This document shows, one piece after another, positions 6,853 through 57,064 of a stretch of 64,000 bases of DNA. This DNA comes from Pirellulaceae bacterium (lineage in GTDB: Bacteria > Planctomycetota > Planctomycetia > Pirellulales > Pirellulaceae), in NCBI GenBank assembly GCA_044371425.1, contig JBILTR010000001.1, positions 602,058 to 666,057 on the forward strand, given 5' to 3'. Within the stretch, counting starts at the first letter, position 1. Every line of letters begins with the position of its first letter. The notes under the pieces were generated by a model. The model saw only the letters and a program-made list of their open reading frames with translations, searched no databases and was not told the origin of the DNA. Made by a program: the position numbers and the translations under genes.

Positions 6853-8904
6853 TTGGCAAGGAAGAGGATCACAAGAACGATGGAACGGGCCTTTCGGTTG
6901 GAATCGTGGCTGGGTATTGATCAGGATCCCTCGTGGCTAGGTGCCGGTCAGCGGCCGGTGGTCTCACAGGGAGAAGGGCCTAGTGGCTCTCTTCCTCTTT
7001 CCGACCAGATGTTGCGGGAGTGGTCCAGTGGCGATCTATTCGGCTGGACGCAGAATGCCGGGATGGGGTGGCCTCCCAGCAAAATGCTAGGTCCGCAGTT
7101 TCTGCTGCTGAGCACCCAAGGGGGAATCCGCGCCGAAGATGGCAGTCCCGTGGCTCTCGGCTATCACACGGGGCACTGGGAAGTTGGCCTGCTGATGCGC
7201 GAGGCAGCGCGATGGATCGAGCAATCGGGTGGAGTGCCTTTTGCAGGGTTCGTCAGCGATCCTTGCGACGGGCGCACCCAGGGGACGGTCGGCATGTTCG
7301 ATTCGCTTCCCTATCGCAACGATGCTGCGATCGTCCTGCGTCGCTTGATCCGTTCCCTGCCGACACGCCGTGGCGTGATGGGGGTGGCCACTTGCGACAA
7401 GGGACTCCCCGCGATGATGATCGCTTTGGCCGGATCCAGCCAGCTTCCTTCGGTTTTAGTGCCGGGTGGCGTCACCTTGCCGGCCAAGGGAGCGGAGGAT
7501 CTTGGCAAGGTCCAGACGATCGGAGCCCGTTACTCGCATGGAGAGATCTCCCTGGAAGCGGCTGCGGAAGCGGGTTGCCGCGCCTGCGGTTCCCCTGGTG
7601 GTGGCTGCCAATTCCTTGGAACCGCGGCCACCAGCCAGGTCGTCGCCGAAGCGCTGGGGATGACCGTCCCTCATGCAGCCCTCGCCCCCAGCGGACAGCC
7701 GCTCTGGCTGGAAACCGCTCGACGCAGCGCCCAGGCACTCTGGGACATGCATCAACGCAAACAGACGCTCGCCGATTTCCTCACCGAAGATTCGTTCCAC
7801 AACGCCCTGGCGGTTCACGCCGCTTGCGGCGGATCGACAAACCTACTGCTCCATATTCCCGCCGTCGCTCATGCAGCCGGTTTGCGCCGGCCTGATGTCC
7901 AGCAGTGGCGTGCCATCAACCTCCAGGTTGCACGGTTCGTCGACTGCCTTCCCAACGGACCTGCCTACCATCCGACCGTCCGGTTTTTTCTCGCCGGCGG
8001 GGTACCGGAGTTGATGTGGCACTTACGGGAATTGGGGGTGGCTCGCTGCGATGCACGCACGATCACTGGCGAAACCTGGCATACCATCCTCGATGCATGG
8101 CATCGATCTCCACGCCGCGCCCAGTTGCGGCAGTGGCTCCTCGAGAATGACGGGGTCGACCCCGATCAGGTGATCTATCCCCCTGCAGCGGCACGCACCG
8201 CGGGGATGACCAGCACGGTTTGCTTCCCGGTCGGCAATCTCTGCCCCGAGGGCTCGGTAATCAAATCGACCGCCATCGATCCCAGCGTGATCGATCCAGA
8301 TGGGGTCTACCGCAAGCAAGGACCGGCGCGCGTCTTCACCACCGAGAAAGAAGCTGTTGCGGCGATCAAAGGGCAGCACCCGCGCCCGATCCGTCCAGGA
8401 GACATTTTGATTCTGATCGGACGTGGTCCGCTGGGATCGGGCATGGAGGAAACCTACCAGGTGACCAGCGCCCTGAAGCACCTTTCTTGGGGCAAGGAGG
8501 TGGCGGTGGTCACCGACGCGCGATTTTCGGGGGTCAGTACGGGTGCCTGCATCGGTCACGTAGGCCCCGAGGCGTTGGCTGGGGGACCCATCGGCCGCGT
8601 CCGCGATGACGATTGGATTGCAATTCAGATCGATCGCATTCGATTGACCGGAAGCGTCGACATGGTCGGCTGTGTCGATCGGCGGCTTGATCCCCACCAA
8701 GCTAACCAGTTGCTAGCCTCCCGAACCGCTCACCCTGCCCTGCAGCCCGACCCGCGGCTTCCTGACGACACGCGCTTATGGGCCGCACTGCAACAGGTTG
8801 GCGGTGGCACCTGGGGCGGATGCGTCTACGATGTCGCTGCGATCGTCGAAACGCTGGAAGCAGGCCGAAAAGCGTTGGCCGAGCGAAAGGCCGATCAGCG
8901 GTAG
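6853..8904 (+). CDS. IlvD/EDD-family dehydratase (dihydroxy-acid / sugar-acid dehydratase). The start codon is uncertain.
   Basis: CDGRTQGT and [17 protein letters not shown] Fe-S cluster motifs; length and order match YjhG/IlvD-type enzymes. Confidence 0.8.
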
Positions 8905-10793
8905 ATCCGATTGCGACCAGGGCCACCATCGAGCAGACTGTCGAGGCGGTCGCCATAAAGCCAATCGTCTCCCAAGCCTCCCAGCAACTGATCGACCCCC
9001 GCTTCACCCCAAAGGCGATCGTTCCCATCGCCTCCTTCCAGGCGGTCGTTGCCACTGCCTCCATAGAGCCAGTCGTGACCCGCCTGACCAAGGAGTTGGT
9101 CTGCCCCCGCCTCACCAAACAGCCAATCGTCCCCGTCGCCTCCATCGAGAAAATCATCGCCACTGCCACCGTAGATCCGGTCGTTGCCCGCACCGCCGAA
9201 GAGTCGATCGTTCCCTTGGTAGGAATAGAGGAAATCGTTTCCTCCCTCGCCGTGCAGTTCGGTGCTGCCGCCTCCCGCATACAGCTGATCATTCCCATCG
9301 CCCCCGCGGATACTGGAAGGCAGCACGATCGTTCTGGCGATCAACACCCAGTCGTGCCCATCCGCAGCATCGATCGAAACTCCCGTCAGGGCGTTCAGTT
9401 CGAATCTCCCTTGCCGGACGCCATTGACGGTCACCTGCACTTGGCCTGCGATCCGTTCGACCAGAATGCGGTCGGGACCCGCAGTGCCTCGCACCGTCAG
9501 AATGCCACCGATCACCGAAACCGTCGCGGGGGTTGGAGCCGGAATGTCCATGCGCTGACTGGTCGCCAAGCCAACGGATCGACCCATCGAGAGCCCTAGC
9601 TCGTTATCGAACCTCCAGTGGATCCCACCATAAAGCCGACTGTCGGCCGATTCCTGAGCCGCTTGGTCGACCGAACTGTAGGAGCGGGCTTCTGCGGCGG
9701 GGTTTTCGCTGGCAGCGGTGAAGGGAAGTTGACTGGTGCCAAAAAAACGAGTCAGCACTGTCGCCATCGCGCCACTGAAAGTGGCATGGCCCGAGGTGTA
9801 GCTTGGGAAGTTGGGCGTGGTCAGCAATGGGGTCCACGTCGGATCGGCCTGGGTGGCTGCATTGCCATCGTCGGCCGCTTTGCGGATCCCGGTGATGGGA
9901 CGCCAGAAATCGGATCGGTACTTGATGTCCCAGCAGACGATCGCCGAGTCAGCCAGCGCGAGGTTGAGGATCGCCATCAGACGCGCATTGTCCGAAAGTG
10001 TCGTCCCGCGGCTTTCGGCAATCGTCCTGGCCATCAGATTCAGATGCCCTGGTGGCGTCGCCGTCCCGGCTCCATTGGCCCAGAAATTAGCGATCTGAGT
10101 CTGATCGGGGGTCCGCGTCGAACTGGTTGCACTGCCGATCTGCTTGACCTCATCGAAGGCGGCAGTGTACTGCGCGCTGTCGAGGGCAGGCGGTGGACCG
10201 GGCCGAAAGGCGCTGCCACTAGAAATCGCAAAGGGACGCACTCCAGGCCATTGTGGCAGCAGCGCAGGCGCCAGCGCCGGAGGCGTCGGCTCCCAGTCTC
10301 CAGGCTGTCCACCAGGAGTGTAGGTCACCGAGTTCTGCGACCCATCATTGGCGCGAGCCGCAAGCATTGCGTCTGCTGCCCGACCACCCGCAGCGATGCC
10401 CGCCTGCTTGTCGAGTCCCTCCGGGACCTTGGCCAGCCACTCCTGTCGATTGGCCTGGAACTTGGCGACTTGAGCTGGGAACAGATTCGATAGCACCCGA
10501 GTGGCCGCCTCTGCGATCGCTGCTTCCCTGGATGCCGTGGGAGGAGCCGCCGGTACCGAAAGGTAGGTCCCATTTCGCTGGTCGATCGACTCGACCGCGT
10601 CATAAACCGCACCATGCAGCATCGCCAGTGCCCGGGATGCCACCGGAGGAGAAGTCCTGTCGGTGCGAATGGCCGCCAAGGCTTCATCGTTCCAATCGAA
10701 GATCGGATCGGCATGCATCAAGTGACGCTGCTCCAATCCCTCCAGTCTCAAAACACGCACGGGACGGGATGCCACTCTTTTTTTGATGCTCAT
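8895..10793 (-). CDS. PAP2 / vanadium-dependent-haloperoxidase-like domain protein with C-terminal hemolysin-type (RTX) calcium-binding repeats.
   Basis: All three PAP2 signature motifs are present: [16 protein letters not shown] and [12 protein letters not shown]. At least 14 GGxGxDxL nonapeptide repeats occur at the C-terminus. The start is set at MSIKKRV (ATG 10791-10793) because a GAGGAGG RBS lies 7 nt upstream. There is no N-terminal signal peptide. Confidence 0.75.
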
Positions 10794-10841
10794 TTGCCCC
10801 TCCTCACTTTTCCAACGGGTCGTCGCTCTATCCAACTGAAC

Positions 10842-11158: not shown

Positions 11159-13282
11159 TTGGGTCCCTCCCTCCTCTCTCGCCTCGGAATTCAGTCCAAA
11201 TTGCTCTTGGCCATGCTTCTGCTGACGCTGCTATCGGTCGGCACGATGGGGGCCCTTGGTTACCGGTCGGCTCGCGTCACCTTGCGCGAGGGGGCACTGA
11301 AGCAACTGGAGGCGGTGCGTCACGCCAAGTCCAGCGCCCTGCGCGCCATGCTGACGGCGCTGCGCAACCAAGTGCAGGCTCTTTCCGACAGCCAGATCGT
11401 CGTCGACAGTACGCTGGCATTCCGTCAGGCCTTCGCCGCTACCCGCAACCAGCGTCTGGCTCCCGATCAACTGCAAAGGCTCCGGCAGTTCTATCAGGAG
11501 CAATTCCTTCCCGAGCTAGCCAAGACGCGCGTTGGCACTCCGGTATTGGAACAGTACCTGCCGGAGGGACCGGCCGAGCAGTGGTTGCAGTACTTTTATC
11601 TGGCGGATAACCAGAATCCTTACAACCAGAAACGCAATCTTGTCAGTGCTCCTCTGGAGTCGACTGGATACGACGCAGTCCATCAACAGTTTCATCCTCG
11701 CTTGGTGCGCGCCTCGCAGCTCTTTCAGTTCGATGACATCCTATTGGTTGATGCCGAGACGCTCGACATCCTCTACTCCGTGGAGAAGCAATCCGAGTTC
11801 GCCACCAACCTCGACACCGGCCCCTACTCCAACACGCTGCTTGCGGCTGGCGTAAAGAAGATGATCAAGGCCCGGGATCGCGACGACTTCAAGATCGTCG
11901 ACTTCGAACCCTACGCGCCGGCGCTTGGGTTGGGGGAAGGCTTTGCGCTCAGCCCCATCTTCGATGGCCCGGAGATGATCGGGATCCTGGTGCTGCAGTT
12001 CCCAAGTTCCAAATTCACCGAGGTGATCACTGGGAATTTCGGATGGGAAAAAGAGGGATTGGGGAAAACGGGGGAATGCTACTTGGTTGGTCCTGATTAC
12101 ACCTTCCGCAGTCGCAGCCGCTTCATGGTGGAGGATCCCAAGGCCTTCATCGCCGAACTGCGCAGTCGCGGGATCAACAAGTCGGTCGTCGATCAGATCG
12201 AAAAACAGCAGTCGGTCCTCAATGTCCTAGAAGTGCGCAACGACAGCGTCCGCAACGCATTCCAAGGGAAGGAGGGGATCCATGAGACGCTCGACTACCG
12301 CGGTCAGCCGGTCCTCAGTTCCTATGGCTCCCTGGAGTTGGATTCGCTCCGCTGGGCGGTGATCGCCGAGATAGACAGCGAGGAAGCGTTCCGTCCGATC
12401 CGCGACTATGCACGATCCGCCATCCTTCTAGGATCGGGTTTGGTTCTCGGATCCAGTCTCCTTGCGATCGCGTTGGCTCACCTGCTCAGCCGCCCCCTGC
12501 GTCGGCTGACCGAAGGCGCTCGAAGGATCGGACGCGGCGATACCTCCGTTCGCATCCCGGTCGTCGGCACCGATGAATACGCAGAGGTGACCGAAGTCTT
12601 CAATGAGATGGCAGGTAGCCTCCGGGCGCAGACGAAGCAGCTAGAAGCAAGGATTCAGGAGAATCAGGAATTGCTGCTGAACATCCTTCCCGAACCGGCG
12701 GTGGCCATGCGGCGCGATGGCGATGAAAAGGCGACCAAACAGTTCGCGGACGTTTCGGTGCTGATGGCCGAAATCGGAGGACTGGAGGCGCTCGGGGAAA
12801 AGATGGACGAGAGCCGTGCGATGAGTCTGTTGGGAGACTTGGTGACGGTTTTCGATGAAGTGGCCGACCGGGTGGGAGTCGAAAAGGTCCGGACGATTGG
12901 CGCTTCCTACTTAGCGGTCTGCGGACTTTCGATCCATCGACCCGATCACCTCAATCGAATCCTTCAGTTCGCCAAGGAGATCACCGAGGTGGTCAACCGA
13001 GTCAACCGCGAACATCAGACGCAATTGACCATCGGGATCGGAGTCAACACAGGGCCTGTGGTTGGTGGTGTCGTGGGTCGCCGGAAATTCCTCTACGACC
13101 TTTGGGGCGATACCGTCAATCTGGCAAGTCGCTTGGCTCGCAGCGGAACCCCGGCCATTCTGGTCACCAAAGATGTCTACGAAAAGACCAAGGATCTGCT
13201 CTCCTATCGACCTGGCTCCCCCATGGAAGTCCCCGGCAAAGGATCGCTCGCTCACTGGCAACTCGATCCCTCGGATTCCTGA
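11159..13282 (+). CDS. Membrane sensor adenylate/guanylate cyclase: periplasmic sensor domain, TM, HAMP, class III cyclase domain. The start is TTG 11159 or ATG 11213.
   Basis: Two TM segments flank a ~380-aa periplasmic region. HAMP region LRRLTEGARRIGRGD. Cyclase motifs VLMAEIGG, RTIGASYLAVCGL and GVNTGPVVGGVVG. Confidence 0.8.
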   Translation: MGPSLLSRLGIQSKLLLAMLLLTLLSVGTMGALGYRSARVTLREGALKQLEAVRHAKSSALRAMLTALRNQVQALSDSQIVVDSTLAFRQAFAATRNQRLAPDQLQRLRQFYQEQFLPELAKTRVGTPVLEQYLPEGPAEQWLQYFYLADNQNPYNQKRNLVSAPLESTGYDAVHQQFHPRLVRASQLFQFDDILLVDAETLDILYSVEKQSEFATNLDTGPYSNTLLAAGVKKMIKARDRDDFKIVDFEPYAPALGLGEGFALSPIFDGPEMIGILVLQFPSSKFTEVITGNFGWEKEGLGKTGECYLVGPDYTFRSRSRFMVEDPKAFIAELRSRGINKSVVDQIEKQQSVLNVLEVRNDSVRNAFQGKEGIHETLDYRGQPVLSSYGSLELDSLRWAVIAEIDSEEAFRPIRDYARSAILLGSGLVLGSSLLAIALAHLLSRPLRRLTEGARRIGRGDTSVRIPVVGTDEYAEVTEVFNEMAGSLRAQTKQLEARIQENQELLLNILPEPAVAMRRDGDEKATKQFADVSVLMAEIGGLEALGEKMDESRAMSLLGDLVTVFDEVADRVGVEKVRTIGASYLAVCGLSIHRPDHLNRILQFAKEITEVVNRVNREHQTQLTIGIGVNTGPVVGGVVGRRKFLYDLWGDTVNLASRLARSGTPAILVTKDVYEKTKDLLSYRPGSPMEVPGKGSLAHWQLDPSDS

Positions 13283-13351: not shown

Positions 13352-14815
13352 ATGGAAACGCTTTGGCAGATCTCCCAAGACCAGCTGATTCCAGCAATCG
13401 CTTTGATCGTTGGCTTTCCCTTGCTGATGATCCTTTCGAATGAGTGGATCCGCGCCTCCGAGGCCAGGGGAGGCAAGCTTCTACCAACCGCTCGTTCGAT
13501 CCGGCGGTTGGTGATCCCGACGCTTGCGATCTGGGTCTTCCTGCGCTGGGTGGCAAAGCTGCCCGATGATCATTTGGCGGTGCGGATCGCTGCGACCTTC
13601 TTTTGGATCAGTGTTCTAATTGCCGTCCTGAACCTGACCAACGATGCGATCTTCGGGAACGCCAATCTGGAGTCCTGGCAGGGACGGATTCCGAAGTTCT
13701 TTCGAGACCTGACGCGCCTGGCGCTAATCGCCTTGGGGGCAGCGATCATCTACTCGCTTGTCTGGAACCAGAACATCAGTGTCGCTCTAACCACCCTGGG
13801 GCTGGGAAGCATCGTTATCGGCCTAGCTTTGCAGGAGCCACTAGGCAACATCGTCTCGGGGATGATGCTGCTGTTCGAGCGACCGCTGAATATCGGCGAT
13901 TGGGTCAATGTAGGAGGTGTCGTCGGGAAGGTGATCGAGATCAATTGGCGTTCGGTCCATATCCAGACACCCACCATGGAATTGCAGATCGTCCCCAACG
14001 TGTCGCTCTACAAAGATGCGTTCACCAACCTCTCACGACCCACCACCATGCGGACCGACCTATATGAAGTCGGATTCTCCTACGATCATCCCCCCAACCG
14101 CGTCAAGCAATTGCTGTTGCAGATGCTGCATGAGACGCCGGGGGTGCTGAAAGACCCGCCACCTCGGGTTCGAACCGTCAACTACGCTGATTTCTCCATC
14201 ATCTACCGATTGATCTTTTCGGTCGAATCCCAAGAAATGCTTCCTGCGACGCGCGATGAGGTGATCACGCGCATTTGGTATGTCGCCAAACGCGAGGGAC
14301 TAAACATCCCTTTCCCGATTCAGTTGGAATACAGCCCAAGCGAGTCGATCAGCACGCCAGAGCCGACGGTGGAAGAGCGTCTGGCAGCTTACCCGCGTTT
14401 CCAGACGGCACTGGTCCCTGGACTACGCGCTCACCAGGAACCACGCACCAAGCAATACGCCGCAGGGGAAGTGCTGCTGCGGGCGGGCGAGCCCAGCCAT
14501 GGCATCTCCCTGATCGTCTCTGGCGACGCTGTCGTCCAGGCGATCGGAGGCGACGGAAATCCAATCACCATCGATACGCTCGATCAAGGTGAGTTTTTCG
14601 GAGAGTACGAACTCTCGGGGGATCAGCCCAGCGAAGTGACGGTGGTGGCTACCAGCGATCTGGTGGTGATCCACTTTCCTCCCGATTCGACATCGCGACT
14701 TCTAGAAAAATCGCCCGCCCTCTCACAGCAGGTGGGAGAGGCTTTATCGAGCCGTCGCAAGGCAGCTCGTGCGGCTCGCGCCATGCAACCCAGCCATGGT
14801 TCCGATGTGGAGTAA
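13352..14815 (+). CDS. Mechanosensitive channel (MscS family) with a C-terminal cyclic-nucleotide-binding domain.
   Basis: MscS core LALQEPLGNIVSGMMLLFERPLNIGDWV; cNMP-binding motifs GEVLLRAGEPSHGISLIVSG and FFGEYEL. Confidence 0.8.
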   Translation: METLWQISQDQLIPAIALIVGFPLLMILSNEWIRASEARGGKLLPTARSIRRLVIPTLAIWVFLRWVAKLPDDHLAVRIAATFFWISVLIAVLNLTNDAIFGNANLESWQGRIPKFFRDLTRLALIALGAAIIYSLVWNQNISVALTTLGLGSIVIGLALQEPLGNIVSGMMLLFERPLNIGDWVNVGGVVGKVIEINWRSVHIQTPTMELQIVPNVSLYKDAFTNLSRPTTMRTDLYEVGFSYDHPPNRVKQLLLQMLHETPGVLKDPPPRVRTVNYADFSIIYRLIFSVESQEMLPATRDEVITRIWYVAKREGLNIPFPIQLEYSPSESISTPEPTVEERLAAYPRFQTALVPGLRAHQEPRTKQYAAGEVLLRAGEPSHGISLIVSGDAVVQAIGGDGNPITIDTLDQGEFFGEYELSGDQPSEVTVVATSDLVVIHFPPDSTSRLLEKSPALSQQVGEALSSRRKAARAARAMQPSHGSDVE

Positions 14816-16453: not shown

Positions 16454-17740
16454 TCAAGCGGAGGGCGGAACGCCGAATCGTCGTCTTCGTTGCTCCAGCG
16501 ATTGTCGATGGGCATGAGCGACGGCGGCGCGAGCGACCCAACCGGCGGCCGTGGCGGACTCCTCCATCCCTTTGAGAATTTCCTCCAAGCGTCGCAAATC
16601 GTGACAGCCGACGTCCCATCCCGCTCGATACCACAAGTCATAGCGTCTTTCTGGCGATGCCTCCCCCGTCCTGGCTTGTTCCATCCAGTAGTCCACCACG
16701 CGGACGCCTCGCGTGTCCTCTGGATCGGTCAAAGCGTCCCAGTAGGCAGGGGAGATCTGATGGCTGGTGGGGGGCGAGGCGATCTGCATTAGTCGGTTGG
16801 CGGCAAACTTTCGTCCACCCAGGTGAACGCCATGCTTTCGAAGCCGAACCGATTGGTCGGTAAAAATGCTGGTCGAAAGAGCTTGCACCCAGCAGTCGGA
16901 TGCCTCCTGCAACTTCTCCTGTCGCAGGGCACCCCAACCAGCGACATCCCATGCCCAGGACTGATCCGATCGGCGAGCCAGGAGGTGGTGCACTTCGTCC
17001 AGGGCTTCGTCCCATCGCTGAATCAGCCATCGCTGAGGGTCTTGAGGAAGCAGGAGGTTTTGGAACTGTTCCAGTCGTTCGGAAGGAAACTGCATCGAAT
17101 CGAAAAGCCACCAACAAAGCTCCCGGTCCCAGTCTACCTGCAGCCAACGGGCATGCTTGGGGGTCGCCAATCGCGCCGCTTCGGACTGAAGCGCAGCATC
17201 GACCCGATCCAGCGCGATCGCATCGAGCGTCCAGCCCATGTCGCGAAACCATCGCCAGCCCTCTGGGCCTTCCAGATGCTCAAGCTGTACCCTATCGCGC
17301 GGTTGTGCATGGGAGGCGACCGATTGAAAAATCCACCGGTCCAGCGACTGCGATCGGCTCGGTTCGCCAAATGCACTCCACGACTCCCCGCACCACGCCA
17401 CGCGGCAATGGTCGTAAAGCAGCGCTTCGCTCCATCGGCTCCCTAGTGGCAGTTGGTCTCCGCCCCCATGGTTCCAATATTGGATCTCCCCGAAATCCCC
17501 TTCCGCACCGATACGCACACAAAGCCAATCGCCATAGCCGTTGGTGATCCACGGCATGCAGTCGGCAGGCATCCCCAGCGGCCAGCGCGTCGGCTGAAGC
17601 AGTTCATCGACTCCCATCGGCTGGTGGAAGGCACCGCGGGTCGACAGGGGGCCGTCGCCATGGCGCCACCAATCAAGCCATGGGTCGGACCATCGAAGAT
17701 GGTAGCGGTCGGCCAGCCGCATGGCGAACGCATCTGACAT
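16454..17740 (-). CDS. Hypothetical protein with an N-terminal SMI1/KNR4 (SUKH-1)-like domain and a ~300-aa uncharacterised C-terminal region. The start is taken at MSDAF.
   Basis: SUKH-1-like signature GMPADCMPWITNGYGDWLCVRIGAEGDFGEIQYWNHGG. The rest has no recognisable motifs. Confidence 0.4.
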   Translation of the reverse strand: MSDAFAMRLADRYHLRWSDPWLDWWRHGDGPLSTRGAFHQPMGVDELLQPTRWPLGMPADCMPWITNGYGDWLCVRIGAEGDFGEIQYWNHGGGDQLPLGSRWSEALLYDHCRVAWCGESWSAFGEPSRSQSLDRWIFQSVASHAQPRDRVQLEHLEGPEGWRWFRDMGWTLDAIALDRVDAALQSEAARLATPKHARWLQVDWDRELCWWLFDSMQFPSERLEQFQNLLLPQDPQRWLIQRWDEALDEVHHLLARRSDQSWAWDVAGWGALRQEKLQEASDCWVQALSTSIFTDQSVRLRKHGVHLGGRKFAANRLMQIASPPTSHQISPAYWDALTDPEDTRGVRVVDYWMEQARTGEASPERRYDLWYRAGWDVGCHDLRRLEEILKGMEESATAAGWVARAAVAHAHRQSLEQRRRRFGVPPSA

Positions 17741-18010
17741 CAGAGAATAACCACGCGCATCGAGAGGAGGGCTGCCCGCGAAAACCTCAGCCGGGAGGCT
17801 GGCTCCCTCACATGATCCTACCTGAGTTTTCCGCCGGCTGCGAAGCAACAGGACGACAAGACCGATCAGGGTAGCAGAAAAGGATTGCCGCCTGAAATGC
17901 TCCCGAACGCTTTTCCGCTAAAATTCAGATGGTCGTTGCGGGATCGTTGGGCGGCTATCAGGGCAGAGGGACGAAGAGACCTGAAGGGTCTGTAGGAGTT
18001 GCGTTGCATC

Positions 18011-20929: not shown

Positions 20930-21808
20930 CTACGAGATTCTCGATTGGCCCTTCGACCGCCGCCGATTCACGACGCCAAGAAGCGCCGATCCTGCAGCAA
21001 AAATGGCGATCGACCCTGGCTCGGGCACCTGAGTCTCAGTGAAGGCATCGCGAGCCTCTGCCGAGGTGAGACCAAAAGCTAACTTGTAGGTTACTGAGGT
21101 CGTCTGGCCTGCACCCAAGAGAACTCGCAGTCCAAGGTGAGTTCCTTGATCATCGAAGAATCCGTTTCCATCCACCGGGAAATTAAAGAAGTTGTTCAAT
21201 AATGAACCAGTCGATATGTCAAAAGGTCCTCCGGAGGCAACAACAACTCTGGGATCCAGCGAACCAGCTACAAACGTATAGCCTGACAGCGCTGATGCTT
21301 CGCCCGCAACGGTACCTGCCAGACTGAGCACATCATTGAATGTCGAGTAACCATAAAGCGGAACTCCTTGGTCTGGATCGAAAGTGTCGAAATAGCTGAC
21401 CGTTGTTGGCGAGATACCCTGATTCGTCAACTGCGTGGTAATCCGCAGGGCATTTACACCGGGGACAAGACTGTAGCTCCGAGTGAATTGAATATCCGCT
21501 CCACCTCCCCCGTAATTGCCGCTGACTGTAGTGCCAGTGACGGTGACGAATTGTTGCGTGACGCCCTCAGCCGTATTGCGTACAAATGTCCCGGTATCTG
21601 TTCCATTCTGAAATCCAAAATCAGATACGTAGGTCCCCTGCCGAAAGAACTCCGTGCCATTGAATGTCACCGAGTTGATGGCTCCATTGCTGTCCGAGAT
21701 ATCGACGGAAAGCAATCCATTGCTGATCACTGCCGCTTGGAGCTCCGATCTTGTTGCCATCCCAACCAGTGCCGCCATGGCCAGAATTCCCGAGTGCATC
21801 CAGTTCAT
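20930..21808 (-). CDS. PEP-CTERM sorting-domain secreted protein.
   Basis: N-terminal signal peptide MNWMHSGILAMAALVGMA. The C-terminus VPEPGSIAIFAAGSALLGVVNRRRSK is the canonical VPEP + TM + Arg cluster. Confidence 0.75.
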   Translation of the reverse strand: MNWMHSGILAMAALVGMATRSELQAAVISNGLLSVDISDSNGAINSVTFNGTEFFRQGTYVSDFGFQNGTDTGTFVRNTAEGVTQQFVTVTGTTVSGNYGGGGADIQFTRSYSLVPGVNALRITTQLTNQGISPTTVSYFDTFDPDQGVPLYGYSTFNDVLSLAGTVAGEASALSGYTFVAGSLDPRVVVASGGPFDISTGSLLNNFFNFPVDGNGFFDDQGTHLGLRVLLGAGQTTSVTYKLAFGLTSAEARDAFTETQVPEPGSIAIFAAGSALLGVVNRRRSKGQSRIS

Positions 21809-24283: not shown

Positions 24284-27200
24284 GTGCCTCATCCCTCCTT
24301 TTGCCAGGGGCAGTCGATGGTCCAAGGCAACCGATCCCACCGACCCAATGCTAGGTTTCCCTTCCTCTTCGGCTGGTTCTGCCGGCCAGCGATCGCTTGC
24401 ATGGTACTGCTCCTGAGCGTGACGCAGACCCAAGGGGAGTCGATCGATTTTCAGCGCGAGGTTGCGCCGATCTTTCGCGAGCGATGTCATCATTGCCACG
24501 ATCGCACGCAGCGAGAAGGTGGCTTGCGACTGGATCGTCGCAGCGATGCGATCCTGGGTGGGGATTCCGGCCCAGCATGGATCCCCACCAAAGCCGAAGG
24601 AAGCCTTCTGATCGCTCGAGTCAGCGCAACCGATCCAGATCTGAGGATGCCTCCCGAGGGACCGCCACTGACTGCGGATCAAATCGAAGTGCTTCGCCGC
24701 TGGATCGATGCAGGCGCTCCTTGGAAAGAATCGATGGAGAGCGACGAAGAGCGATCGACGGTCGCTCATTGGGCATGGCAACCGATCACCCCACCGACCA
24801 TTCCGCCGGAGGATCGATCTGCGACAGCCGCCTCCTCTCCGATCGACCGATTCATTCGGCAGAGACTGTCCGAAGAGCGGCTACCACCCGCTCCCACTGC
24901 CGACCGCGCCACCCTGATTCGCCGCATTCACTTCGACTTGATCGGTTTGCCGCCCTCTCCAGAAGAGGTCGATGCATTCGTCGGCGATGATCGACCCGAC
25001 GCCTGGGAGAGGTTGGTCGATCGCCTTCTTGCCTCACCACAGCTTGGGGAGCGTTGGGCTAGACACTGGCTGGATGTCGTCCACTACGGCGACACGCATG
25101 GCTATGACAAAGACAAGTTGCGTCCCTATGCTTGGCCCTATCGCGACTGGGTGATTCGAGCTTTCAACGAAGACCGATCGTACGTGCAGATGATCGAACA
25201 GCAGGTGGCCGGCGACCAGCTCTTCCCAGATCAGCCCGATGGGATTGTGGCGCAGGGCATGATCTCCGCAGGCCCATGGGACTTTATCGGCCACGCAGAA
25301 GTCCCTGAAACCAAGACCGATGGCAAGATCGCTCGGCACCTGGATCGCGATGACATGGTGGCCAATGTGATCGGCACATTCTGCAGCGTGACCATCCACT
25401 GCGCTCAGTGCCACAACCACAAATTCGATCCCATCACCCAGGAAGACTACTATTCGCTCCACGCCGTCTTCGCGGCGCTCGATCGAGCGGATCGGGCTTA
25501 CTATGCCGATCCTGAGATCGGAAAGCTTGCCGGCTCCCTGAGCCAGCGGCGGCGCGAAGTGGCCGCGGAACAGGAAGCTCGTCTCAATCTGCTTCGCGAA
25601 CAGACCGGCGCGGAGATCGTCGAGGTGGAGCGACAATTGGCGGCGTCTCAGAAGTCCGCCGGAAACCCTACCGAAGCATTTGGATACCACAGCGCCCTGA
25701 GCGATCGAGCGGATGCAAAGAAATGGGTGCAGGTCGATCTTGGGGAAGCGATCTCTATGGCAGCCGTTTCGGTGCGCCCCTGTTACGACGATTTCAATCA
25801 GATCGGTGCAGGTTTTGGTTTTCCTAGACGTTATCGCATTCTTGGATCCAGCGACCCACAATTCAAGGACGCATCCACTCTGGTCTTGGTCGACCGCACC
25901 AAGGAGTCGCAGCCCAATCCAGGGACTCGGCCACTCCGATTCGACCAACTGGATGGACGCTTCCGTTATGTGCGACTGGAGGCGACGGAACTGGCACCTA
26001 GGTCGGGCGACTTCATGCTTGCCATCGCTGAGCTGGAGGTGTGGGATCGCGAGGGCCTGAATCTTGCGGCGGGGAAAGCCGTCGAAGCCTTCGATTCGAT
26101 CGAAGCTCCAGCGCGGTGGCAGAAAAGCAATCTGACCGACGGCAAGTTTCCGAGCGATACCTCGGATCAGCCTCCTTCCCACTGGGTCGCTCTAAGAAAC
26201 CAGCTCTTCCAGAAAGCCAATCCAACACTTTTCTCGCAGTGGCAGGAGGCGAGTGAGCTGCTGGATCAATTGGATCAGAAGATCAAGGAACTGCCTTCTC
26301 CACAATTGGCTTACGTCGCGACGGTGCACACTGGCAGCGGCGCTTTTGCGGGGACCGGTGCCAGCGGTGGGAAACCCAGGCCGATCCATCTCTTGCGACG
26401 AGGCAACATTCAGCAGCCTGCACAAGCCGTCGGCCCCGGCAGCCTCTCGATGCTGCGGCATGCACCCAATCGATTCCCGATGGACATGGGGGATACCGAG
26501 GGGAATCGACGAGCGGAACTGGCACGATGGATCGCTCATCGAGACAATCCGTTGACGTGGCGAAGTATCGCCAATCGCATCTGGCAATACCATTTTGGAC
26601 GCGGGATCGTCGAAACAAGCAATGATTTCGGCACCATGGGCTCGGCTCCCAGTCACCCCCAGTTGCTCGATTGGATCGCTTTACGCGTCTTGGAGAGCGA
26701 CGGGTCGCTCAAGCAACTTCATCGCGACATCCTACTTTCGGATACCTACCAACAAGCCAGTGCGGTCGACCTAGAGCGACAAGCTATGGGCGAGGCGGTG
26801 GATCGCGATAATCGGCTGTTGTGGAAGCAGAATCGGCGCAAGCTGGAAGCGGAGGCGGTGCGCGACGCGGTCCTAGCAGTCAGCGGTACACTGCAGCAAT
26901 CGATGGGCGGTCCGGGATATCAGGATTTTGTGATCGAGCACCCGGAGCATTCGCCTCATTATGAATACCACTTGGCAGATCCCTCGGACTGGAAGACCTG
27001 GCGCAGATCGATCTACCGCGTGATTGTCCGCAGCCAGACCCAGCCGTTCATGACCAGCCTCGACTGCGCCGATCCATCGATGCGCGTCGAGAAACGCAAT
27101 GAGAGCATCTCCCCGATCCAGGCACTGACGCTGCTGAACAACGGACTGATGGTCACGCAGGCCAGCCATTTCGCGAAAAGGCTGGAGCGGGAGGTTGGGG

Positions 27201-27361
27201 GGGATCTGGAGATGCAGGTGGAACGAGCGTTTCGGCTGGCGATCGGCCGTACTCCCAGCGAGGACGAGCGACAGGTGCTGCTCGATCTGCGACGGGAGTC
27301 TGGGCTAGCCAATCTATGCCGGGTGCTGCTGAATCTGAACGAGTTTCACTTCATCGATTGA
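24284..27361 (+). CDS. PSCyt1 / DUF1549 / F5-8 type C (discoidin) / DUF1553 (PSD1) protein of the planctomycete-specific cytochrome-like family.
   Basis: CHHCHD heme-like motif near the N-terminus; central discoidin-like segment YVRLEATELAPRSGDFMLAIAELEVWD; DUF1553-type C-terminus; 1025 aa. Confidence 0.8.
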   Translation: MPHPSFCQGQSMVQGNRSHRPNARFPFLFGWFCRPAIACMVLLLSVTQTQGESIDFQREVAPIFRERCHHCHDRTQREGGLRLDRRSDAILGGDSGPAWIPTKAEGSLLIARVSATDPDLRMPPEGPPLTADQIEVLRRWIDAGAPWKESMESDEERSTVAHWAWQPITPPTIPPEDRSATAASSPIDRFIRQRLSEERLPPAPTADRATLIRRIHFDLIGLPPSPEEVDAFVGDDRPDAWERLVDRLLASPQLGERWARHWLDVVHYGDTHGYDKDKLRPYAWPYRDWVIRAFNEDRSYVQMIEQQVAGDQLFPDQPDGIVAQGMISAGPWDFIGHAEVPETKTDGKIARHLDRDDMVANVIGTFCSVTIHCAQCHNHKFDPITQEDYYSLHAVFAALDRADRAYYADPEIGKLAGSLSQRRREVAAEQEARLNLLREQTGAEIVEVERQLAASQKSAGNPTEAFGYHSALSDRADAKKWVQVDLGEAISMAAVSVRPCYDDFNQIGAGFGFPRRYRILGSSDPQFKDASTLVLVDRTKESQPNPGTRPLRFDQLDGRFRYVRLEATELAPRSGDFMLAIAELEVWDREGLNLAAGKAVEAFDSIEAPARWQKSNLTDGKFPSDTSDQPPSHWVALRNQLFQKANPTLFSQWQEASELLDQLDQKIKELPSPQLAYVATVHTGSGAFAGTGASGGKPRPIHLLRRGNIQQPAQAVGPGSLSMLRHAPNRFPMDMGDTEGNRRAELARWIAHRDNPLTWRSIANRIWQYHFGRGIVETSNDFGTMGSAPSHPQLLDWIALRVLESDGSLKQLHRDILLSDTYQQASAVDLERQAMGEAVDRDNRLLWKQNRRKLEAEAVRDAVLAVSGTLQQSMGGPGYQDFVIEHPEHSPHYEYHLADPSDWKTWRRSIYRVIVRSQTQPFMTSLDCADPSMRVEKRNESISPIQALTLLNNGLMVTQASHFAKRLEREVGGDLEMQVERAFRLAIGRTPSEDERQVLLDLRRESGLANLCRVLLNLNEFHFID

Positions 27362-28290: not shown

Positions 28291-28641
28291 AGGTCCTCAG
28301 CAAGGAAAGAAATCGCGGCTGGACCAGATTTTTCTGCCAGTTCGCCCGCCGAAGAAGTGTACCACGTTTGCAAGCCATCTGCCGTCCTCGAGGAACCGGA
28401 GGGCAATGGCTAGATGGCAGGTCCGCAGTTGGATTGGCCCCGGTTTGATGGCTTGTTGCGGTAAAGATGGCTAGAATTCGAGCGTGGAGTTATGGGAGTT
28501 GGTGGCCGGGTGGGGTCTCCGGTCGATGGACCCAAATGCTTCCATGTCCCATCGCTCCATGGGCTATGGTTTTCAGGACCTAGTGTTTTCGGACCTGGGT
28601 TTGGAGGGGCTGGGTTCGGAAACCGGAAGGAACCGTCTGCG

Positions 28642-30744
28642 ATGGAACCGTTTCAAATAGTTTGCCCTTCCTGCCAAGGAAAACTGCGGGTAGCCAAAGA
28701 AAGTCTGCTCGGAAGAACCATCCCCTGCCCCCGGTGCAGTCAGCCGGTTGAAGTGGTTGATCCCCGGCGAGTCTTCGTTCGGCCGCCTGGGGGCGAGGCG
28801 TTGGATTCAGAGGCGATCACGAGGGGGGCGGATGAGTCGCTGGAGGGGGCTGCGCCCCATGCGAAGGCAGAATCGCTGGCTCCTCAAATGGCCGGCAAGC
28901 GTGGCTTCCGAAATGACCCAGCGTCGGCGGCACCCTCCATCCCTCCATCGCCGACGCCGACGCCGACGCCGACACCGCAGAGCAAACGCCAACCGAGTGA
29001 CGATCGGGCGATCGATCCGGCGGCTCAAGTGGCCTCCCTGGAGTTGCCGCAGAACTGGTCTGCCGATGGACTGAACAGCTCGCGACGATGGCTGCAGGCA
29101 ATCACCCTGGGATTGATCGGACTGCTGGCCGCTGGCGCGGGTTTCTTTGGGTTTGTACGACTTTTCCAGAATCAACAGAACAAGGGAGAGGTCGCGGTCG
29201 CTCCCCCATCCATCGAAGGCTCGGAAACTGCCATCGTCGATCGACAGGGGCCTCAAGACGAAGAGCAGCCCAAGCTGCAGGCACAGATCGCTGCAGCACC
29301 GACCTTAGATCCGAGCATCTTCCAGCCGAAGGTGGCTGAACCACCGAATGCCGCTCCATGGACGCCGCCCCTTGGGGATTCGGATCGGGAGCCGACTCTG
29401 CAGCACCAGGGAGTGGAGCCGGATCCAGCGGTACCGGCGCCTGAGGTTACGAGCACAAAGGAACCCCGTGACGATGCGCCCAAGGGAGGCGCCCAAGGGG
29501 GCGCGAAGAAGGAGCCAGAGGCAGGTGATGAGGAAGTGATCCTGCCGGAAGTGTTTCGGACTTTTCTTCCAGGCGGAGGTCTTGCGGCCGGTTCCCAGAT
29601 GTCCGATGCGATCCTCAGTGCCGAACCAGCTACCGTCCTCCCCGATGCTCCACAGAAGATTCGAATAGACCACTACGTGCATCCTCCAGCGGCGGAATTG
29701 GGAGATGTCGTCAAGCAGTTGGATTGGACGTTAGGGGAGGTGGAGCTCCCCAACATCCCGTTGCACGAAGCGCTGGGTATCTTTTCCCAATTGACCGGGG
29801 TGGGGTTGCAGCTAGACCTGCCGATGATGCTTCGATGCGGGGTTTCCCCTTCGACGCCTGTCTCCGGAAAGTTTCAAGACCTGAAGGTGTCTGAAGCGGT
29901 GAGCCAGTTGGTGGAGCCCTTGGGATTGCAGCTGATCGTCAGCGATGGCCAGCTCCCTTGGATCACTCCAAGTCCCCAGACGGTCGGAAAGCGACTCGAT
30001 CAACGATGGAGGATCGACGACCTTGGGGACATCGACGCCCAGCAGGGGTGGTGGAAGGCGATTGTGGAGGTGGTGCCCGAACTGGGGGATTGGTGTCGTG
30101 TGGAGGCTGGAGAGGTGATTTGGGATCCGAAGGCACCCAGCTCCGCCAAACTGTCGCTCAGCCTGACGCTGGATCGAATTCGATCAGCGATCGGAAAGCC
30201 GCCACAGTGGAAGTGGGCGGATGGCCAGTTGGAGGCGGGGTATCCTTGGGGAGGTTCGACCCAGTGGCTTCAGGAGACCGCCAGCAGCGCATCGCCACAG
30301 GATCGTCCATGGGTGCATGCGCTGATGCGAGCGGCGAAGGAGAGTGGTATCGATCTGGTGGTCGACTGGAAGGGACTGGCGTCGCATGGAGTCACCCCCA
30401 AGTCGTCCGAGACCGTCGTTTTGCGGAATCGAACTGTTCCTCAGATTTTCAAGAAGTACCGGGAAAGGCTGGCGTTAGAGTTGTTGGTGGTGGAACCTGG
30501 ATTGCTGTACCTGACCATTCCGGAGACCAGGCGAATGGATAGCCAGGTCTATCTGGTATCGCTACCTGCCGGGACCAATCCGCAAGATCTGGTCCCATCG
30601 CTTCGCTCCATCGCGCCGGCCAGTGCCTCGATGGAGAGCCTTTTGAGGGTGGTTCCCACGCCTCAGTCCCCGTGGTGTCTGGTCCGGACCTGCATGCCGT
30701 CGATTGAACAGTTGGAGTCGTTGCCGCCGGGAGCTGGTAGCTGA
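28642..30744 (+). CDS. Hypothetical membrane protein: N-terminal zinc-ribbon (CPSC..CPRC), one TM, Pro-rich linker, large uncharacterised extracytoplasmic domain.
   Basis: MEPFQIVCPSCQGKLRV...CPRCSQPVEV; TM WLQAITLGLIGLLAAGAGFFGFV. Confidence 0.5.
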   Translation: MEPFQIVCPSCQGKLRVAKESLLGRTIPCPRCSQPVEVVDPRRVFVRPPGGEALDSEAITRGADESLEGAAPHAKAESLAPQMAGKRGFRNDPASAAPSIPPSPTPTPTPTPQSKRQPSDDRAIDPAAQVASLELPQNWSADGLNSSRRWLQAITLGLIGLLAAGAGFFGFVRLFQNQQNKGEVAVAPPSIEGSETAIVDRQGPQDEEQPKLQAQIAAAPTLDPSIFQPKVAEPPNAAPWTPPLGDSDREPTLQHQGVEPDPAVPAPEVTSTKEPRDDAPKGGAQGGAKKEPEAGDEEVILPEVFRTFLPGGGLAAGSQMSDAILSAEPATVLPDAPQKIRIDHYVHPPAAELGDVVKQLDWTLGEVELPNIPLHEALGIFSQLTGVGLQLDLPMMLRCGVSPSTPVSGKFQDLKVSEAVSQLVEPLGLQLIVSDGQLPWITPSPQTVGKRLDQRWRIDDLGDIDAQQGWWKAIVEVVPELGDWCRVEAGEVIWDPKAPSSAKLSLSLTLDRIRSAIGKPPQWKWADGQLEAGYPWGGSTQWLQETASSASPQDRPWVHALMRAAKESGIDLVVDWKGLASHGVTPKSSETVVLRNRTVPQIFKKYRERLALELLVVEPGLLYLTIPETRRMDSQVYLVSLPAGTNPQDLVPSLRSIAPASASMESLLRVVPTPQSPWCLVRTCMPSIEQLESLPPGAGS

Positions 30745-37973: not shown

Positions 37974-38293
37974 TCAATCTTCCGTCTGCTACATGTCCCT
38001 TAGCTGAATCGACGCCCAATCTAGTCTAATCCCATTGCGAATGTTCGCTAGGGCAATCAGGTGACGGCATGCATCATCGACACGTAGGGTTTCCTCGCTA
38101 TTGAACCTTAGTGCAAACAGCCCGACGATCGCTTTTGAATCGAGCCGCCGGATTGGTCTATACTGGAAAGCATCCTGTCGTTCGGTGAACTTGGTTTCGC
38201 GTTTTGTCTTCGCGAGAAAAGGAACGCCCAACGGACAGCCCCACCCAAGTCGGATTCCGCCCCCCACCCAGATCGAATCTTTGGGAGTCTTCG

Positions 38294-41014: not shown

Positions 41015-41251
41015 TGAATCATTTTTGATCTCCCCATCGAACCGGCTGCCTTGCCGTAGCCGGAAGAACCAACCCCTCGCTTCGCTGGGCAGTTCGCCTT
41101 GCCAAGCCGATGCATCCTTCCCTTTGGCTTCCTCAAGCACGCGATCGAAAGTCTCGCCGCGATGAACACCGACGCTCCCCTCCCCTTTCGGATCCGATGG
41201 TCCCCCTCGAACCGATCTTGGGCGATCCGCTCCAGGTCCATCCGATCTCGG

Positions 41252-44200: not shown

Positions 44201-44275
44201 CCGCAAGATGTCGCCGCCTGGGCCCTGGCCGGACGCGTCCTGCTGAACCTCGATGAAACCATCACCAAGAACTGA
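41252..44275 (+). CDS. PSCyt1 / PSCyt2 (DUF1549) / PSD1 (DUF1553) family protein.
   Basis: Signal peptide [17 protein letters not shown]; CWQCHG motif; same domain order as 24284-27361; 1007 aa. Confidence 0.8.
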
Positions 44276-44297
44276 CTTTCGCCTGAGGCAACTGAAG

Positions 44298-54622: not shown

Positions 54623-54639
54623 GCGAACTTATAAGATTT

Positions 54640-54697
54640 GCCCAAACGCGGGAATTGGAACAAACCATCGCCGCCAATGTGGCGGGGATTTCGGAGG
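54640..54697 (+). pseudogene. Relic duplicate of the 3' end of hsdM between dinD and hsdS.
   Basis: About 80% nt identity over 57 bp to 53709-53765. It would encode AQTRELEQTIAANVAGISEG, compared with the HsdM C-terminus [20 protein letters not shown]. Confidence 0.7.
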
Positions 54698-54698
54698 G

Positions 54699-55923
<1,225 letters not shown>

Positions 55924-55931
<8 letters not shown>

Positions 55932-57015: not shown

Positions 57016-57017
57016 CC

Positions 57018-57064
57018 ATGAGCCCGCACGCCTACACCGAAGACCAACTCGTTGAACAGCCCGC
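57018..57064 (+). pseudogene. Relic duplicate of the 5' end of hsdR.
   Basis: A 47/47-nt identical match to the hsdR start at 58212-58258 (atgagcccgcacgcctacaccgaagaccaactcgttgaacagcccgc). Confidence 0.8.

Follow-up and report, generated by a model that had tools for sequence, protein, structure and literature searches.

A haloperoxidase-like PAP2 enzyme with an RTX tail and a conserved planctomycete N-terminal motif, a probable exported protein of the Pirellulaceae

The gene described here lies in a 64-kb stretch of DNA from a Pirellulaceae planctomycete; the whole of this stretch is referred to below as the window. Its open reading frame is intact on the minus strand, with an ATG at 10793 and a TGA at 8895-8897. 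An earlier note on this DNA had placed the start behind a GAGGAGG ribosome-binding site, and GAGGAGG was indeed confirmed at 10799-10805. An alternative TTG start at 10835 would add 14 further residues, and these are hydrophilic. The 10-bp overlap with a neighbouring dehydratase gene, also proposed previously, was verified from both stop codons: the dehydratase gene runs from 6853 to 8904 on the plus strand, ends with a TAG at 8902-8904, and belongs to the IlvD/Edd family by Pfam. An identical 632-aa protein (P0001) is on record from five contigs (Pirellulaceae MAG). The features of the locus are as follows.

8895..10793, minus strand: complete gene, 632 aa plus stop, in which a leader is followed by a VHPO-like catalytic domain, a beta-sandwich linker and an RTX beta-roll (ORF, translation)
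10799..10805, minus strand: Shine-Dalgarno-like GAGGAGG, preceding the ATG with a 5-nt spacer (sequence reading; plus strand cctcctc)
10707..10793, minus strand: N-terminal leader, residues 1-29, hydrophilic, basic and disordered in the model (pLDDT about 50, hydrophobicity values)
10710..10757, minus strand: planctomycete N-terminal motif, residues 13-28, matching RRLxxExLExRxLLA, PF07595 type (homologue conservation, leader HMM)
9549..10706, minus strand: catalytic domain (residues 30-415) of two helical bundles with the vanadium-haloperoxidase (VHPO) fold (phmmer, Foldseek)
9897..9923, minus strand: motif 1, KYRSDFWRP (K291, R298), residues 291-299 (alignment to CiVCPO, DNA check)
9786..9806, minus strand: motif 2, PSYTSGH (S334, G335, H336), residues 330-336 (alignment to CiVCPO, DNA check)
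9606..9641, minus strand: motif 3 (R386, H392, D396), residues 385-396 (alignment to CiVCPO, DNA check)
9339..9524, minus strand: beta-sandwich linker module, residues 424-485 (AF2 model, seven or eight strands, pLDDT 86-97)
8898..9311, minus strand: calcium-binding beta-roll of RTX type (residues 495-632), with 15 nonapeptides in register plus an IYR end (HemolysinCabind, register count, model)
8895..8904, no strand assigned: 10 bp shared by the 3' ends of this gene and of the convergently oriented IlvD/Edd-family dehydratase gene (stop codons read in the sequence)

The earlier note had described a PAP2/VHPO domain fused to a C-terminal RTX tail. On this point Pfam, phmmer, the AF2 model, Foldseek and an alignment to the Curvularia inaequalis enzyme (CiVCPO) all agree. 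Pfam PAP2 (PF01569) is matched with an E-value of 2.1e-8 (34.4 bits versus a cut-off of 27.2) and HemolysinCabind with 5e-42 over six stretches; VCPO_N and VCPO_2nd both score under their own cut-offs in this protein. The AF2 model of the 632-aa protein (mean pLDDT 92.9, pTM 0.90) has the two-bundle VHPO fold, and its vanadate/phosphate residues all map onto those of CiVCPO.

The best match in both sequence and structure is VIPO1 of Zobellia galactanivorans (4CIT/4USZ). phmmer aligns residues 44-412 to 4CIT with an E-value of 5.6e-45, and Foldseek against 4USZ/4CIT gives a target-normalised TM-score of 0.83 (rmsd 2.9 A, 30% identity, ~410 residues); CiVCPO, NapH3 and NapH1 follow in the Foldseek ranking, i.e. 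all are VHPOs. The two proteins have the monomer-type two-bundle fold in common, and CWD-x-KYRS, FP-x-YTSGH and SR-x-YGGIH recur almost letter for letter. In contrast, VIPO1 has no RTX tail, beta-sandwich linker or planctomycete leader, all three of which are present here, and it reads HYRAA where our protein reads HWRFD, as in the fungal enzyme. The halide specificity of VIPO1 cannot be transferred to our protein. For CiVCPO (1IDQ/1VNC), the vanadate ligands together with W350, F397 and D500 have identical counterparts, although overall identity is 22-25% and the Curvularia enzyme, a secreted protein of fungal origin, has long insertions (609 aa in its catalytic part) and no RTX.

All three acid-phosphatase/haloperoxidase motifs named in the earlier note were found, checked in the DNA and aligned residue for residue with CiVCPO. 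K291 and R298 of motif 1 align to K353 and R360; S334, G335 and H336 of motif 2 to S402, G403 and H404; and R386, H392 and D396 of motif 3 to R490, H496 and D500 (domain 2 of the alignment). W288, three residues upstream of motif 1, and F329, directly upstream of motif 2, align to W350 and F397, which line the halide site in CiVCPO. Among 84 homologues, K291, R298, S334 and D396 are invariant, while W288, F329, G335, H336, R386 and H392 are kept in at least 90%. The full vanadate/phosphate-binding set (K291, R298, S334, G335, H336, R386, H392) is therewith retained, the PAP2 signature KX6RP / PSGH / SRX5HX3D is complete and conserved in the family, and H392 is predicted to be either the vanadate ligand or a phosphohistidine nucleophile.

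Class A acid phosphatases (PhoN, PhoC, E. blattae NSAP) have the PAP2 motifs and the core four-helix bundle in common with our protein. However, they are Sec-exported periplasmic proteins of ~230 aa with a single bundle, whereas the catalytic part here has ~385 aa, two bundles and no Sec signal; membership in the class A non-specific acid phosphatases was rejected on these three grounds. In Foldseek they are matched at E about 1e-4 to 1e-5, over one bundle and ~230 columns.

Sequence and fold make haloperoxidase chemistry more likely than phosphatase chemistry. The catalytic domain would bind vanadate via H392 and oxidise a halide (Cl-, Br- or I-) with H2O2, giving hypohalous acid. The competing proposal, possible but rather doubtful, keeps the same architecture and export and changes the chemistry: a secreted, Ca2+-stabilised non-specific acid phosphatase, in which H392 would form the phosphohistidine intermediate, H336 would protonate the leaving group, and phosphate would be scavenged from organic esters. 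It draws on the complete, conserved PAP2 signature, on the same seven residues being used by PAP2 acid phosphatases to bind phosphate, on the PGAP name 'phosphatase PAP2 family protein', and on the title of PDB entry 3BB0, which presents an apo-chloroperoxidase as capable of dephosphorylation. Ecology may also speak for it: many homologues come from freshwater MAGs, where phosphorus limitation is probably common, and halide and vanadium are scarce in the lakes and glacier-fed streams that are the apparent sources of homologues. Nevertheless, the VHPOs are far closer (Zobellia VIPO1 at E 5.6e-45 and TM 0.83, then CiVCPO, NapH1 and NapH3) than the class A acid phosphatases, which reach E about 1e-5 with one bundle covered, and the conserved W288 and F329 match W350 and F397 of CiVCPO. 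Furthermore, an active planctomycete VHPO is on record, that of Rhodopirellula baltica, a vanadate-dependent bromo/chloroperoxidase (PMC13519999). Compared by description, this enzyme (Q7UVW2) is, like ours, from the Pirellulaceae; it lies near the iodoperoxidases and brominates and chlorinates monochlorodimedone with vanadate and H2O2. PMC13519999 mentions no RTX or calcium-binding domain for it, whereas our protein has an RTX tail, and Q7UVW2 is absent among the best 120 matches listed in our homologue searches.

Between the catalytic domain and the tail lies the linker module, for which the Pfam search gave no family and which is kept in the family consensus. The tail itself is made of 15 nine-residue units in perfect register (residues 495-629), 11 of them strict GxxGxD and four degenerate; therefore, the 'at least 14' repeats counted in the earlier note hold if the degenerate units are included and not for strict units only. 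Only IYR, three residues, stands between the last unit and the stop, which leaves 19 residues after the last strict unit. In the AF2 model, a strand recurs every nine residues up to residue 631 (pLDDT 87-97). This ending is a property of the family: the terminal unit is conserved as GGxG(R/K)N(R/K), and fewer than 20 residues follow the last strict unit in 104 of 120 homologues.

At the other end of the protein, the longest run free of D, E, K and R within residues 1-29 is five residues, and the Kyte-Doolittle maximum is 0.22 (12-residue window). Inspection for an h-region, for a twin-arginine with h-region and for a lipobox Cys revealed no Sec, Tat or lipoprotein signal; the sole Cys of the protein is residue 287. 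The earlier description of a hydrophilic N-terminus without a Sec or Tat signal is thus upheld by hydrophobicity and motif inspection, but the N-terminus is probably not signal-free: a PF07595-type motif, a putative export signal, is present there, with ExLExR placed 12-13 residues before the WN anchor in 107 of the 108 homologues that have a leader. This conserved planctomycete motif had been overlooked in that note. Among 84 homologues, R23 never varies, and E18, L20 and E21 are kept in at least 90%; the leaders of close relatives differ outside the motif, while the motif itself is kept. The family leader consensus is RSRRRLALEQLEDRQLLAAD, and the leader takes the form LExLExRxL(L/M)xA.

PF07595 is matched by 55 of the 84 aligned homologues (best 1.2e-6). 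The query alone gives no match to the Pfam PF07595 model at E<=1; it agrees with the consensus at seven of the ten specified positions and differs conservatively at one more. A leader HMM from which the query had been left out gives it 14.0 bits (E 0.001), the top score among 598 window segments. As in PF07595 motif proteins, the motif of our protein lies at the extreme N-terminus, resembles the RRLxxExLExRxLLA consensus and is preceded by a basic stretch; described carriers, by contrast, consist for the most part of giant adhesin-like proteins and proteases, along with a dehydrogenase (PMC8567305), whereas ours is a VHPO-RTX enzyme. This planctomycete-specific motif was put forward as an export signal in 2004 (Studholme et al. 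2004, cited through PMC8567305), and PMC8567305 treats it as a novel, putative one. In Tuwongella, 52 proteins carry it; 20 of these were detected, eight of them solely in the SDS-soluble envelope fraction (PMC8567305).

The same architecture recurs in more than 200 clusters (90% identity), mostly from Pirellulales, and the family spans at least 30 species-level genomes; in terms of database records the protein is hence not the 'unusual exoenzyme' it was first taken for. Extracellular VHPOs are, moreover, the norm among the fungal and algal enzymes. Many homologues apparently come from lakes and glacier-fed streams, as judged from record titles. In a crude NJ tree, the C-terminal-RTX planctomycete forms group as a single clade, and because of this the link between the motif and a C-terminal RTX amounts to essentially one evolutionary event. 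In these forms the (E)xLExR leader stands at the same spot in 30 of 30, and a hydrophobic h-region in none of the 30. The leader is also found on RTX-less proteins, and it is therefore independent of RTX. In cyanobacterial relatives, RTX is at the N-terminus.

A further group of 24 RTX-less orthologues, from Verrucomicrobiota, Acidobacteriota, Phycisphaerae and some Pirellulales, carries classical Sec signal peptides ending ...AxA|D[VI]VxxWN. The planctomycete motif occupies the position of these Sec signal peptides, with the junction before the conserved D-[VI]-V-x-x-W-N. Since the Sec signal peptides of the orthologues end directly before this same sequence, the protein is very probably exported, as far as sequence comparison can tell.

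The explanation that best fits the whole is an exported, probably cell-surface or extracellular, VHPO-branch PAP2 enzyme that is routed by its leader, acts as a haloperoxidase, and does not use its RTX module as a type I secretion (T1SS) signal; we give this reading a probability of about 0.6. The PF07595-type motif is accordingly the proposed export signal. The protein would leave the cytoplasm independently of Sec, by a route that the N-terminal motif specifies, and the leader may be cleaved off before the invariant D29. The RTX module would stay unfolded at the low Ca2+ concentration inside the cell and become a Ca2+-loaded beta-roll outside it, where the folded roll could stabilise the enzyme, drive its folding or tether it, without serving as a type I secretion signal of the canonical kind.

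The earlier note had instead read the protein as a type I secretion substrate. In its canonical form, which we consider unlikely, an ABC/MFP/TolC-like system encoded elsewhere would read the RTX tail and the extreme C-terminus and thread the protein C-terminus first, folding would follow on Ca2+, and the N-terminal motif would be irrelevant to export or serve as a retention or processing tag. RTX repeats in a protein that lacks a Sec signal classically mark a T1SS substrate, and the gain of RTX coincides with the absence of a Sec signal in two independent lineages (C-terminal RTX in planctomycetes, N-terminal RTX in cyanobacteria). The T1SS RTX exoenzymes (serralysin-family proteases, Pseudomonas and Serratia lipases, CyaA) likewise join an enzyme to a C-terminal GGxGxD beta-roll without an N-terminal Sec signal, and the RTX segment of our protein matches them with E-values of 1e-6 to 1e-34. 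However, those proteins have a non-repeat C-terminal signal or cap after the repeats, and their ABC/MFP genes are usually adjacent; ours has neither, and it has the conserved N-terminal motif in addition. A passage of PMC6891781 defines T1SS substrates by a non-cleavable C-terminal signal preceded by repeats. Here the repeats and the modelled roll reach the last residues and leave no non-repeat C-terminal segment, although a cryptic signal within the last repeats is possible.

The search for nearby secretion genes points the same way: neither the 64-kb window nor two annotated homologue loci yielded ABC, MFP or OMF genes, and 28 homologue loci (332 kb) hold a single short ABC-ATPase-like ORF of 396 aa and no membrane-fusion genes. 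Against this, there are predicted T1SS loci in Planctomycetes, and the genes of most T1SS are divided between two loci, often at a distance from their substrates (PMC4793230). Nevertheless, type I secretion leaves the strongly conserved N-terminal motif, also present on RTX-less proteins, unexplained, and a C-terminal signal does not account for the N-terminal RTX of the cyanobacterial relatives.

Last, a cytoplasmic enzyme, with some other role for the N-terminal motif and RTX as a structural scaffold only, is very improbable: it would fit the failure to find a recognised signal peptide in the protein and the absence of secretion genes nearby, but RTX rolls need millimolar Ca2+ for folding, Sec signal peptides stand at the same junction in orthologues, and hypohalous acid made in the cytoplasm would presumably damage the cell itself. 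Motif-bearing proteins of Tuwongella, moreover, fractionate with the envelope (PMC8567305).

Three points deserve mention. VHPO-type enzymes with a Ca2+-binding beta-roll form a large clade in Planctomycetes common in lakes, streams and soils, and if they are active haloperoxidases, VHPO biology reaches well beyond marine algae, fungi and Streptomyces. The exchange of a Sec peptide for a PF07595-type leader is clean in position; it offers comparative evidence for the motif as an export signal and couples that motif to an easily assayed enzyme reporter. For annotation, the case is a caution that RTX together with 'no signal peptide' does not automatically mean T1SS, especially outside Proteobacteria.

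More speculatively, the PF07595-type leader may be the address tag of a Sec-independent planctomycete route for export or surface display, perhaps a T1SS-like one that reads or retains the N-terminal motif. The VHPO family would then be a natural experiment and a reporter for this route, with the same catalytic domain, starting from the same invariant Asp, behind a Sec peptide in other lineages and behind the leader and joined to RTX in one planctomycete clade. As a further part of this tentative picture, the extracellular RTX-tailed haloperoxidases of abundant freshwater Planctomycetes and of filamentous Cyanobacteria might be an overlooked source, in inland waters, of reactive halogen species and of natural organohalogens.

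No description of a VHPO-RTX fusion, or of a VHPO-RTX enzyme with a PF07595-type leader, was found in the literature searched. The gene itself is no surprise, because each of its two domains is a textbook module and its family already figures in the databases. It is assembled from known parts, and the family is real and widespread, listed under automatic names: most members are called 'phosphatase PAP2 family protein' by NCBI/PGAP.

The gene under study has the extent that the earlier note gave it:

8895-10793, minus strand: ORF of 632 aa by translation, from ATG at 10793 to TGA at 8895-8897

The sequence GAGGAGG lies at 10799-10805, 5 nt 5' of the ATG. The farthest-upstream start possible, a TTG at 10835, would extend the protein by only 14 residues; a start there with a signal peptide is ruled out, as the extra residues (MDRATTRWKSEEGQ) are hydrophilic. 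Five recorded contigs, the longest of 713 kb, encode a 632-aa protein identical to the product. In its 90% cluster, the members with names come from Pirellulaceae MAGs and are labelled 'phosphatase PAP2 family protein' or 'vanadium-dependent haloperoxidase'. At the 3' end, a convergent IlvD/Edd-type dehydratase gene (6853-8904) overlaps the query gene by 10 bp. This overlap, also noticed before, is real because each end is set by a stop codon, and it has no evident functional bearing.

Both Pfam families expected of the product were recovered, PAP2 above threshold and HemolysinCabind at E 5e-42; VCPO_N and VCPO_2nd were sub-threshold. A search of NCBIfam returned no vanadium-haloperoxidase (VHPO) model, and its RTX-family matches were partial and far below cut-offs. 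Among PDB sequences, the query (residues 44-412) by far most closely matches 4CIT, the vanadium iodoperoxidase of Zobellia galactanivorans (E 5.6e-45), with the Curvularia chloroperoxidase next (E ~1e-21). An AlphaFold2 model of the query, with 84 homologues as alignment input, is confident (pLDDT 92.9, pTM 0.90), and its closest folds are VHPOs: Foldseek places 4USZ/4CIT, both Zobellia iodoperoxidase, at the top (target-normalised TM 0.83, rmsd 2.9 A, 30% identity), followed by the Curvularia inaequalis vanadium chloroperoxidase (CiVCPO), NapH3, XhnO11 and NapH1. Class A acid phosphatases appear at E ~1e-5 only, with a single bundle covered. In CiVCPO numbering, the residue equivalences taken from the HMMER alignment are:

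CiVCPO W350/K353/R360: query W288/K291/R298
CiVCPO F397/S402/G403/H404: query F329/S334/G335/H336
CiVCPO R490/H496/D500: query R386/H392/D396

All of these query residues are invariant or at least 90% conserved in the 84-sequence family alignment. Thus, the three PAP2/haloperoxidase motifs that had been picked out by eye are real and lie at catalytic positions.

On paper, the predicted active site is equally competent for vanadate and phosphate. The domain is probably a haloperoxidase (probability about 0.6): its nearest matches, both among PDB sequences and in Foldseek with the model, are proven VHPOs, with acid phosphatases far more distant, and the conservation of W288 and F329 points the same way. 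Activity has been demonstrated for a VHPO of the planctomycete Rhodopirellula baltica, which prefers bromide to chloride about fivefold (PMC13519999); this enzyme (Q7UVW2) did not appear among the best 120 matches when a homologue from marine Mariniblastus served as the search seed. That the domain acts as a phosphatase would suit the many members that seemingly come from freshwater habitats, judged by record titles, and we regard it as rather unlikely.

Beyond the catalytic domain, residues 424-485 form a beta-sandwich module that joins the enzyme to the RTX roll. Residues 495-629 are fifteen 9-residue RTX units in perfect register (11 fit GxxGxD, 4 are degenerate), after which only IYR remains, and the model has a short strand per nine residues as far as residue 631 (pLDDT 87-97). 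Fewer than 20 residues follow the last strict RTX unit in 104 of the 120 homologous protein records. Their final unit, GGxG(R/K)N(R/K)xx(Q/R), is conserved and degenerate, with basic residues in place of the Ca-binding Asp; it may cap the roll or serve as a sorting tag.

The N-terminus had been described as hydrophilic and lacking a Sec/Tat signal. The absence of an h-region was upheld: the Kyte-Doolittle value over 12 residues peaks at 0.22 in the query, which has no hydrophobic core, and stays at or below 1.6 in all of 101 leaders from homologues; neither a Tat motif nor a lipobox was found in the query N-terminus. However, the N-terminus is not signal-free, as residues 13-28 of the leader (residues 1-29) match the consensus RRLxxExLExRxLLA. 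This motif, of the PF07595 type, was described for R. baltica surface proteins and is considered a novel signal for export; in the Tuwongella proteome it is carried by 52 proteins, 20 of which were detected, 8 of these 20 exclusively in the SDS-soluble envelope fraction (PMC8567305, the one paper among those found that discusses the motif). In the 84-homologue alignment, E18, L20 and E21 are at least 90% conserved and R23 is invariant, and ExLExR stands 12-13 residues ahead of a WN anchor in 107 of 108 leader-bearing homologues. PF07595 itself is matched at E<=1 by 55 of the 84 homologues (best 1.2e-6) and not by the query. A leader HMM made without the query (consensus RSRRRLALEQLEDRQLLAAD) nevertheless scores the query leader at 14.0 bits (E 0.001), first of 598 six-frame segments of the window, the runner-up reaching 6.6 bits. 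The conservation and the HMM score are evidence that the predicted motif copy in the query is genuine. The motif 5' of M26 is kept at the protein level among homologues of ~50% identity; hence M26, the start of the 607-aa records from some gene callers, is ruled out as the true start.

The leader is also found in homologue loci on neighbouring proteins without RTX and on another RTX protein, and is therefore an autonomous feature. Its LExLExR form was seen at L002 14122-17214 (minus strand), L036 9795-13208, L027 3471-5444, L031 9447-11534 and L073 1436-5707; one of these proteins is a 1030-aa RTX protein, and the rest have few or no RTX units. We favour export specified by this putative leader, with the RTX roll serving, in this proposal, as a module that would aid Ca2+-dependent folding, stabilise or tether.

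The earlier note had proposed type I secretion (T1SS) through a C-terminal signal, which would fit the presence of RTX repeats and the absence of a Sec signal; T1SS is also predicted in Planctomycetes, and T1SS genes are often spread over separate loci (PMC4793230). The proposal found little support. In PMC6891781, T1SS substrates are defined by a C-terminal non-cleavable signal with the repeats ahead of it, whereas the query has no non-repeat segment after its repeats. T1SS genes (ABC, MFP, OMF) are absent from the window, both by Pfam (40 ORFs covering it) and when every ORF of at least 150 aa was scanned for Walker-A plus LSGGQ, and from two annotated homologue loci; 28 homologue loci (332 kb) hold only one short ABC-like ORF, of 396 aa. 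The autonomy of the leader, with and without RTX, also argues against a canonical T1SS substrate, which we consider unlikely, and a C-terminal signal cannot account for the N-terminal RTX of the cyanobacterial homologues described below.

Of 522 relatives from a scan of species-representative genomes, 80 were kept; their N-termini sort cleanly into classes. Classical Sec signal peptides, whose ...AxA end lies directly ahead of D-[VI]-V-x-x-W-N, are carried by 24 RTX-less orthologues, L036 being an example, from Verrucomicrobiota, Acidobacteriota, Methylomirabilota, Phycisphaerae and some Pirellulales. The planctomycete forms with C-terminal RTX have the (E)xLExR leader at the same junction (30/30) and no h-region (0/30). 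Homologues from Microcoleus, Oscillatoria, Lyngbya and Phormidium have no signal peptide and the reverse domain order, RTX repeats first and the VHPO domain C-terminal. Such filamentous cyanobacterial homologues were seen at L039, L041-L044, L046, L054, L057, L065 and L080, with a catalytic domain of ~50% identity. A crude NJ tree without support values groups the planctomycete C-RTX forms in one clade, within which L033 and L073 have exchanged the tail and kept the leader, and the cyanobacterial N-RTX forms in a separate clade nested among the signal-peptide forms. From the sorting of N-termini and this tree, we conclude that this family as a whole is probably extracytoplasmic, that in the C-RTX clade the leader appears to take the place of the Sec signal, with the junction at the same, invariant residue (D29), and that RTX appears to have been fused on two or more independent occasions, in opposite orientation. 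The catalytic domain also lies inside very large multidomain ORFs of >1400 and >2800 aa with long N-terminal extensions (L045, a Nitrospira MAG; L056, a Pirellulaceae MAG).

Homology searches found >200 distinct 90%-identity clusters, mostly unnamed or automatically named, that share the VCPO/PAP2 plus HemolysinCabind architecture, and none of the papers found mentions a VHPO-RTX fusion or such use of the leader. Thus, the RTX-tailed VHPO-type protein is a variant of a known enzyme kind; the kind itself is not new. The observation made from sequence alone is confirmed; the interpretation put on it holds in part. What is most useful beyond this is the swap between Sec signal and PF07595 leader, by which the planctomycete export motif becomes approachable by experiment.

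Gene neighbourhood is not conserved among the three loci compared, the neighbours being unlike in the window, a Planctomycetaceae MAG and Anatilimnocola aggregata. The latter (P0112, CP036274.1 6994882-7016540) and Anatilimnocola sp. NA78 are cultured bacteria that carry a family member. Other features of the window are:

11159-13282, plus strand: HAMP-domain adenylate/guanylate cyclase
13352-14815, plus strand: MscS-type mechanosensitive channel, directly following, with a C-terminal cyclic-nucleotide-binding domain
16454-17848, minus strand: 464-aa ORF without Pfam assignment
20930-21808, minus strand: 292-aa protein with a C-terminal PEP-CTERM sorting motif
24284-27361 and 41099-44275, plus strand: planctomycete hallmark PSCyt1/PSCyt2/PSD1 proteins
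28492-30744, plus strand: 750-aa ORF with a weak LysW-type zinc-ribbon match only, otherwise without Pfam assignment
38204-41014, plus strand: 936-aa multidomain protein (glucose/sorbosone dehydrogenase, PKD, cytochrome c, CBM6)
38627-41383, antisense to the 936-aa protein gene: long ORF without family match, probably spurious
44253-45731, plus strand: DUF1501 protein, paired with the PSCyt1/PSCyt2/PSD1 protein at 41099-44275
52152-61367, plus strand: type I restriction-modification operon with extra inserts
55672-57015 and 57052-58215, plus strand: tandem YhcG/DUF1016 PDDEXK nucleases (Pfam)

The PSCyt1/PSCyt2/PSD1 and DUF1501 genes support a planctomycete origin of the window. The cyclase and channel, transcribed divergently from the query gene, look like a cyclase and cNMP-gated channel pair. 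The restriction-modification operon runs in the order HsdM, Bro-N domain protein, HsdS, the two tandem nucleases and HsdR.
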